Shown: piece by piece, positions 6,566 through 7,614 of the stretch | How positions within the stretch are numbered: position 1 is the first letter of the stretch | How the letters are laid out: each line of letters starts with the position of its first letter | DNA from: a virus | Taxonomy: Duplodnaviria > Heunggongvirae > Uroviricota > Caudoviricetes | Direction: 5' to 3' (one strand) | DNA: 7,614 bases | Virus record (IMG/VR): IMGVR_UViG_2585427735_000018 | Span: 1 to 7,614 of that record | The notes under the pieces: generated by a model | The model's database searches: none | Seen by the model: only the letters and a program-made list of their open reading frames with translations | Told to the model about the DNA's origin: nothing | Made by a program: the position numbers and the translations under genes

Positions 6566-7614
6566 GCGCCGGGATTTACCCCCTAACCTTTATATAAGAA
6601 ACAATGGATATTACTGCTACAGGGACCCAAGGACGGGTAAAGAGTTTGGATTAGGCAGAGACAGGCGAATCGCAATCACTGAAGCCATACAGGCCAACAT
6701 TGAGTTATTTTCAGGACACAAACACAAGCCTCTGACAGCGAGAATCAACAGTGATAATTCCGTTACGTTACATTCATGGCTTGATCGCTACGAAAAAATC
6801 CTGGCCAGCAGAGGAATCAAGCAGAAGACACTCATAAATTACATGAGCAAAATTAAAGCAATTAAGGAGGGGTCTGCCTGATGCTCCACTTGAAGACATC
6901 ACCACAAAAGAAATTGCGGCAATGCTCAATGGATACATAGACGAGGGCAAGGCGGCGTCAGCCAAGTTAATCAGATCAACACTGAGCGATGCATTCCGAG
7001 AGGCAATAGCTGAAGGCCATATAACAACAAACCCTGTCGCTGCCACTCGCGCAGCAAAATCAGAGGTAAGGAGATCAAGACTTACGGCTGACGAATACCT
7101 GAAAATTTATCAAGCAGCAGAATCATCACCATGTTGGCTCAGACTTGCAATGGAACTGGCTGTTGTTACCGGGCAACGAGTTGGTGATTTATGCGAAATG
7201 AAGTGGTCTGATATCGTAGATGGATATCTTTATGTCGAGCAAAGCAAAACAGGCGTAAAAATTGCCATCCCAACAACATTGCATGTTGATGCTCTCGGGA
7301 TATCAATGAAGGAAACACTTGATAAATGCAAAGAGATTCTTGGCGGAGAAACCATAATTGCATCTACTCGTCGTGAACCGCTTTCATCCGGCACAGTATC
7401 AAGGTATTTTATGCGCGCACGAAAAGCATCAGGTCTTTCCTTCGAAGGGGATCCGCCTACCTTTCACGAGTTGCGCAGTTTGTCTGCAAGACTCTATGAG
7501 AAGCAGATAAGCGATAAGTTTGCTCAACATCTTCTCGGGCATAAGTCGGACACCATGGCATCACAGTATCGTGATGACAGAGGCAGGGAGTGGGACAAAA
7601 TTGAAATCAAATAA
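6543..7614 (+). pseudogene. int: Lambda-type tyrosine integrase Int, interrupted by a +1 frameshift near 6861-6866
   Basis: Frame A (6543-6881) reads MGRRRSHERRDLPPNLYIRNNGYYCYRDPRTGKEFGLGRD...INYMSKIKAI then KEGSA*. Frame B, open from 6847, continues RRGLPDAPLEDITTKEIAAMLNGYIDEGK...WDKIEIK* to 7614. Together they are collinear with lambda Int (356 aa) apparently with one extra nucleotide in gcaATTAAGG. Confidence 0.9.

Follow-up and report, generated by a model that had tools for sequence, protein, structure and literature searches.

The integrase gene (int) of a lambdoid prophage contained in the window, by which we mean the whole analysed stretch of 7,614 nucleotides, carries one extra T that splits its reading frame. 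We assign a probability of roughly 0.88 to the following account as a whole: the frameshift is genuine and recent, it belongs to ordinary prophage decay, and it leaves a prophage that lacks Int and is locked in the host chromosome. As such, the case is already-known biology, namely an ordinary, recent pseudogenisation of a prophage int gene.

Split int gene in the early-left arm of a lambdoid prophage

The window represents the early-left arm of the prophage, read in the direction of pL transcription, and ends exactly with the int stop codon. The following features were assigned:

1–563 (+): right-hand part of IS1, with the insB ORF at 45–548 and the terminal ...AAGTTGGAGTCATTACC, located in codon 58 of a Ser/Thr kinase gene
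564–1438 (+): 3' remnant of the gene for a Stk-like protein kinase; the first 57 codons are gone, the VIK lysine motif among them; PF00069 found on the 348-aa relative
between the kinase remnant and gam: kil-like gene
2364–2660: gam
2666–3451: bet
3448–4128: exo
between exo and xis: several small ORFs
5294–5896 (minus strand): 200-aa membrane ORF
6347–6565 (+): xis, intact, 72-aa excisionase; overlaps the start of int as in lambda; PF07825; labelled excisionase in lambda and E. coli records
6543–7614 (+): int, both parts
6543–6881 (+): int 5' fragment (frame A), 112 aa, consisting of Int residues 1–107 plus the tail KEGSA, with TGA at 6879–6881
6847–6881 (+): 35 nt in which both frames are open; a +1 shift anywhere within them would restore the 356-aa Int
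6862–6863 (+): lesion, TT for a single T, at int nt 320; codon 107 ATA becomes ATT (both Ile) plus one base
6864–6882 (+): AAGGAGGGG-TCT-GCC-TGA-T; read natively, two rare Arg codons in tandem, AGG AGG (108–109)
6864–7614 (+): int 3' part in the native frame, residues 108–356, with the remainder of the core-binding domain and the entire catalytic domain

In related contigs, int is followed by the lambda attL, whose P' arm and 15-bp core (GCTTTTTTATACTAA) lie intact 74 nt 3' of the int stop, and then by ybhC. We take this site beside ybhC to be the classical lambda attachment site. A separate observation concerns the 200-aa ORF on the minus strand, which runs against the pL operon. It is predicted to encode a multi-pass membrane protein and occupies the region in which lambda has ea22/ea8.5, with a DksA/TraR-like zinc-finger ORF on one side and xis on the other. 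Annotated as hypothetical and with no recorded Pfam hit, it is perhaps a moron-type gene.

Alignment with lambda (NC_001416) and with E. coli 90-9281 located the lesion as one extra T at window position 6862/6863, which changes GCAATAAGG to GCAATTAAGG. Around it, 180/180 alignment columns are identical between lambda, 90-9281 and the window (GCAA-TAAGG versus GCAATTAAGG at the lesion itself). Only one T is found there in lambda and in approximately 1,890 E. coli genomes, and the best matches among RefSeq complete genomes are all one base shorter than the window at this site, showing as a 1-base gap. Apart from the lesion, xis-int does not differ at all from the intact allele of E. coli 90-9281, and the int region is 99.0–99.5% identical to lambda and many lambdoid phages and 99.9% identical to many E. 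coli prophages. Since a single nucleotide was inserted, correcting the frame would take a +1 shift of the ribosome.

Frame A reads ...MSKIKAIKEGSA followed by the stop codon, and its residues 1–107 are identical to lambda Int. Frame B is open from 6847, after TGA 6844–6846, and reads AKLKQLRRGLPDAPLEDITTKEIAAMLNGYI...; in this native frame the stretch open from 6847 reads ...RRGLPDAPLEDITTKEIAAMLNGYI, and past the lesion RRGLPDAP... is resumed. The preliminary description had proposed, from the letters alone, that two int frames overlapping at 6847–6881 together make up a lambda-type Int and that a single-nucleotide +1 break lies near 6861–6866. We recovered the same coordinates and peptide strings, and the alignment to lambda int, which had been suggested as a check, places an indel in this stretch and narrows it to the one T.

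Both halves match lambda Int at approximately 99%, which is far from a chance resemblance. The N-terminal fragment contains PF09003 (Arm-DNA-bind_1; E 8.5e-34, residues 1–69 of 112 aa) and the C-terminal one PF00589 (Phage_integrase; E 6.3e-41), so the split falls between the two domains. With the domain limits of Int taken from PDB chains (1KJK, 1–64; 2OXO, 74–176; 1AE9, 177–355), the 112-aa product comprises the complete arm-binding domain and approximately 35 residues, i.e. the first third, of the core-binding domain. R212, K235, H308, R311, H333 and the nucleophile Tyr342 (Y342) are all encoded past the break, according to an alignment to PDB 5J0N. The locus thus has the arm domain, the catalytic domain and the xis/att location of a functional lambda-type tyrosine integrase, but not in one uninterrupted frame, and is therefore to be filed as a pseudogene of this family.

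Separate expression of the C-terminal fragment was considered and rejected. The sole ATG-initiated ORF in the native frame past the lesion (ATG 6922, M127; 6922–7614, 230 aa) has no Shine-Dalgarno (SD) sequence. An SD-like AAGGAGG is found 10 nt before ATG 6881, but this start is out of frame and opens an ORF of 20 codons, and it was likewise rejected as a start of the C-terminal fragment.

In lambda, a tetramer of full-length Int acts together with Xis, IHF and Fis in the excisive recombination of attL with attR. Judged from the reading frame and from what is known of the lambda Int domains, the int gene of the window would have lost its function. In the course of events that we propose, the prophage sits beside ybhC, at the attachment site of lambda, and codon 107 of its int gene has gained one T. 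Translation from the normal start would then end five codons further on at the UGA, yielding the 112-aa arm-binding fragment, while the catalytic domain with its Tyr342 nucleophile would no longer be translated. No Int tetramer would be available for attL x attR recombination, and the prophage would remain locked in the chromosome. By analogy with lambda genetics, it is probably unable to excise alone. With Xis intact, and attL intact in the relatives, the defect would specifically concern Int and could be complemented by Int supplied in trans.

Authenticity and age of the extra T

An exact-sequence look-up detected the 112-aa product in 44 index blocks, from which 24 contigs were read. The sources include NCBI (GCA_018097185.1), ENA (ERZ1034943, a SPAdes contig at 27x coverage) and Logan (SRR29848283), and at least four separate NCBI protein accessions exist for the product. 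The carrier contigs contain the prophage of the window beside ybhC and are 99.93% identical to window positions 564–7614, T included; for example, the insertion is present in three closely compared relatives (L003–L005) just as in the window. Compared with each other, the carriers differ by 0–4 SNPs in 20 kb. Nor does the lesion (A-T-A to A-TT-A) fall in a homopolymer, the type of sequence in which indel errors arise systematically. Because the identical T occurs in contigs from three repositories, in near-clonal carriers and at a non-homopolymer site, the insertion is a genuine mutation, passed on within a single near-clonal lineage of E. coli.

The allele is rare. The extra T was found in none of 5,426 RefSeq complete E. 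coli genomes, of which approximately 1,890 have the stretch and have it intact; two records in the "≥99%" identity band of this search were left unlisted, and presumably they are partial matches of IS-truncated copies (such as L013/L014) rather than carriers. The GTDB species representatives, IMG/VR and the JGI metagenomes gave no match to the allele either. Draft, Logan and ENA assemblies of apparently one clone are its only support. The absence from complete genomes speaks for a sequencing or assembly indel with the gene intact in the living strain, a caveat already raised in the preliminary description. Further suspicion comes from a private cluster of five changes at a T-rich stretch elsewhere in the window. 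However, the insertion recurs in contigs of three repositories produced by different assemblers, including the SPAdes contig at 27x, and in at least four separate NCBI assemblies. With at least 24 contigs placing it at one chromosomal site, the caveat is largely removed. The agreement of independent assemblies makes the TT very likely, and we regard an error at this position as highly improbable.

The private cluster itself lies within 37 nt at 6114–6150 (+G at 6114, G>T at 6122, A>T at 6127, G>A at 6142 and G>C at 6150). It creates a G4T11 run and destroys the ATG of a lambda orf55-like ORF; outside it, window positions 564–7614 are identical to L003/L005. This variant was absent from 1,860 complete E. 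coli genomes, the GTDB representatives and the JGI metagenomes, and no source was found for it. Either an assembly artefact confined to this spot or a multi-base mutation could account for it, and it means that the window sequence is not beyond question elsewhere.

The second lesion of the window, IS1, was recognised by its insB ORF and by a terminal inverted repeat abutting an interrupted target, which is continuous in one of the relatives (L003). The IS1 part is 98.9% identical to annotated IS1A and ends at 563 (insertion at 563/564); its left end and the target duplication fall outside the window. It removes the ATP-binding VIK lysine motif of the kinase. The relatives L003–L005, which have the int frameshift, possess an uninterrupted 348-aa kinase gene and no IS1. 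Consequently, the frameshift predates the IS1 insertion, and IS1 is, on this comparison, a later lesion of the window's own strain or sublineage. The extra T would accordingly have been inherited vertically in the lineage before the neighbouring kinase gene was cut. As the int pseudogene shows no further change relative to the common intact allele, the frameshift is young. The earlier view of a decaying prophage is thereby borne out within the window by two independent lesions, of which the frameshift came first. Prophage Stk-type kinases are known as phage-exclusion genes, and the IS1 hit may thus remove a function beneficial to the host.

Complete genomes did not yield an ancestor of the frameshifted prophage. 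As a side observation, the ybhC-pgl flank of E. coli AMSHJX01 (NZ_CP030939.1; L137) is 100% identical to that of the carriers, and complete genomes of this type have another lambda-like prophage at that site, apparently complete and with int intact. This case documents that prophages are replaced at attB within one chromosomal lineage.

Possible residual expression and function

The insertion lies directly upstream of AGG AGG (6864–6869) and takes both codons out of frame. This tandem pair is reported to cause ribosome stalling and +1 frameshifting on overexpression and to modulate how much Int is made (Zahn and Landy 1996; Spanjaard and van Duin 1988, both as cited in PMC6456624). In the shifted frame, 6864–6882 now reads as an SD-like run, a UCU spacer codon, GCC and the new UGA, an order that superficially resembles the recoding site of prfB (AGG GGG UAU/UCU CUU UGA C, in which the CUU to UUU slip is the critical element; bioRxiv 10.64898/2026.01.08.698412). 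One might therefore suppose that a +1 shift inside 6847–6881 yields full-length Int at a low level. The likeness of GAG GGG UCU GCC UGA to prfB in its G-rich SD-like run, UCU spacer and UGA is in favour of this idea, as are the 35 nt over which both frames are open and two upstream lysine codons (AAA-A and AAA-G) that can re-pair in the +1 frame. Intrinsic suppression of a +1 insertion has been reported to reach 5% in one rpoB case, with 0.1–1% being typical for shift-prone sequences (PMC7022156). A shift at GCC-UGA would replace RRGLP by KEGSA and create the junction KEGSA-DAPLE (...AIKEGSADAPLEDITTK), and one at the lysine codons would change IKAI to LKQL.

Several features of the site speak against such leaky expression, which we consider very unlikely. 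GCC in the P-site re-pairs poorly in +1 (CCU), with a mismatch at the first position, so that the shifty codon of prfB is lacking. The spacing of the SD-like run is ambiguous: GAGGGG does end 3 nt before GCC, but the strongest pairing with the anti-SD sequence (UAAGGAGG) ends 5 nt, not 3 nt, before this codon. The base after the stop is U instead of C. This order of elements arose by chance from the native AGG AGG GGU codons, and it is not conserved: an intact ORF is the rule, phage genomes have the ORF intact, and other lineages have both -1 and +1 changes at this spot. The lineage is also too young for any selection test. A rescue that would matter to the prophage is accordingly unlikely, with a chance in the same low range or marginally below. 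Slimmer by a trace would be the full scenario in which the mutation made a prfB-like cassette by accident and leaky +1 shifting supplied a little Int with five (or three) altered core-binding residues, so that the prophage would be attenuated, not dead. If true, this would represent a "saviour" recoding site arising de novo from tandem AGG codons.

Alternatively, the 112-aa fragment might have been kept for a function of its own, for instance by occupying arm-type sites and interfering with the integration or excision of related phages. The fragment does hold a complete, independently folding arm-binding domain (PF09003), whose structure was solved alone (PDB 1KJK), and it retains its native start and the coupling to xis. 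There is, however, no sign of selection, the allele is limited to one near-clonal lineage, and other lineages break int elsewhere, including by IS insertions and deletions that remove the N-terminus. A further argument against it comes from established lambda biology: int is transcribed from pI or pL only and not in a repressed lysogen. We consider a retained function of this kind scarcely credible, and we continue to favour a plain loss of Int by the frameshift.

The locus is best annotated as a frameshifted int pseudogene in two fragments, within a prophage that also has an IS1-disrupted kinase gene. The extra T offers a clean, clone-specific lineage marker. The account predicts that the prophage neither excises nor transfers unaided, which is relevant if it carries cargo, and the window documents the order of decay events, from the int frameshift to IS1. 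Beyond annotation, the case carries little weight; only leaky frameshifting, if real, would add an example of de novo recoding.

Comparison with lambda Int, other int pseudogenes and prfB

Defective lambdoid prophages with damaged integrases are standard knowledge in E. coli genomics. Given this, and since int is broken in many ways, the present lesion is one more instance of a well-known process. The 230-aa C-terminal ORF of int is on record in 787 index blocks, and among ten listed places of these, int was broken in at least six ways other than that of the window. In 120 IMG/VR loci, the 4-bp deletion was found again, together with two internal deletions. The other int lesions are as follows:

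nt 62–65: 4-bp deletion
nt 131: IS
approximately nt 326–331: -1 and +C in the GGGG(G/T)C run
nt 329/330: two different IS3-family insertions, everything upstream lost
717–857 and 795–860: internal deletions (IMG/VR)

Among the alleles compared, +T at nt 320 is confined to the clone to which the window belongs. Five of the seven distinct lesions upstream of M127 at the 230-aa ORF loci fall within int nt 320–331 (window 6862–6874; L007, L012–L016), and this segment (AGG AGG GGK) may be a mutational hot spot. This idea is weakened by the IMG/VR data, in which no +/-1 variant occurs there and the 120 loci have their lesions elsewhere. Furthermore, the -1 variant was seen in one complete genome only and +C in none, and the -1 sits in a G5 run, so that some assemblies may owe it to homopolymer miscalling in long reads. 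Independently of this, we noticed that next to ybhC in Shigella-like and other genomes (L009–L011, L013, L014), the prophage has been lost except for the 3' part of this int allele, which directly abuts an IS. Remnants of lambda-type int are very frequent at attB.

The closest known system is the Int of phage lambda (NC_001416, 27812–28882; PDB 1Z1G, 5J0N), with approximately 99% DNA and protein identity over 356 codons. Both share the xis overlap, the domain order, the catalytic residues and, in the relatives of the window, the attL P' arm and core. In contrast to lambda, the ORF of the window is split by the extra T in codon 107 and has H168P, A245T and I248V in the untranslated part, and its prophage is a mosaic with a non-lambda immunity and a kinase gene. 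The intact allele WP_000533643.1, from the lambdoid prophage at ybhC in E. coli 90-9281, occupies the same chromosomal site and is identical in xis-int nucleotides save for the T, but forms an uninterrupted ORF of 1,071 nt. Other int pseudogenes of E. coli and Shigella have in common with the window the 230-aa ORF beside ybhC and the class of event (frameshift, IS or deletion), whereas the lesions themselves differ. Finally, the int site resembles prfB (RF2) in having an in-frame UGA that follows a G-rich SD-like run and a UCU spacer and in the need for +1 to reach the downstream frame. It differs from prfB by the lack of a shifty CUU, another register of the strongest SD pairing and U as the fourth base, and its arrangement is neither conserved nor autoregulatory, having come from a recent mutation rather than having evolved as a recoding site.
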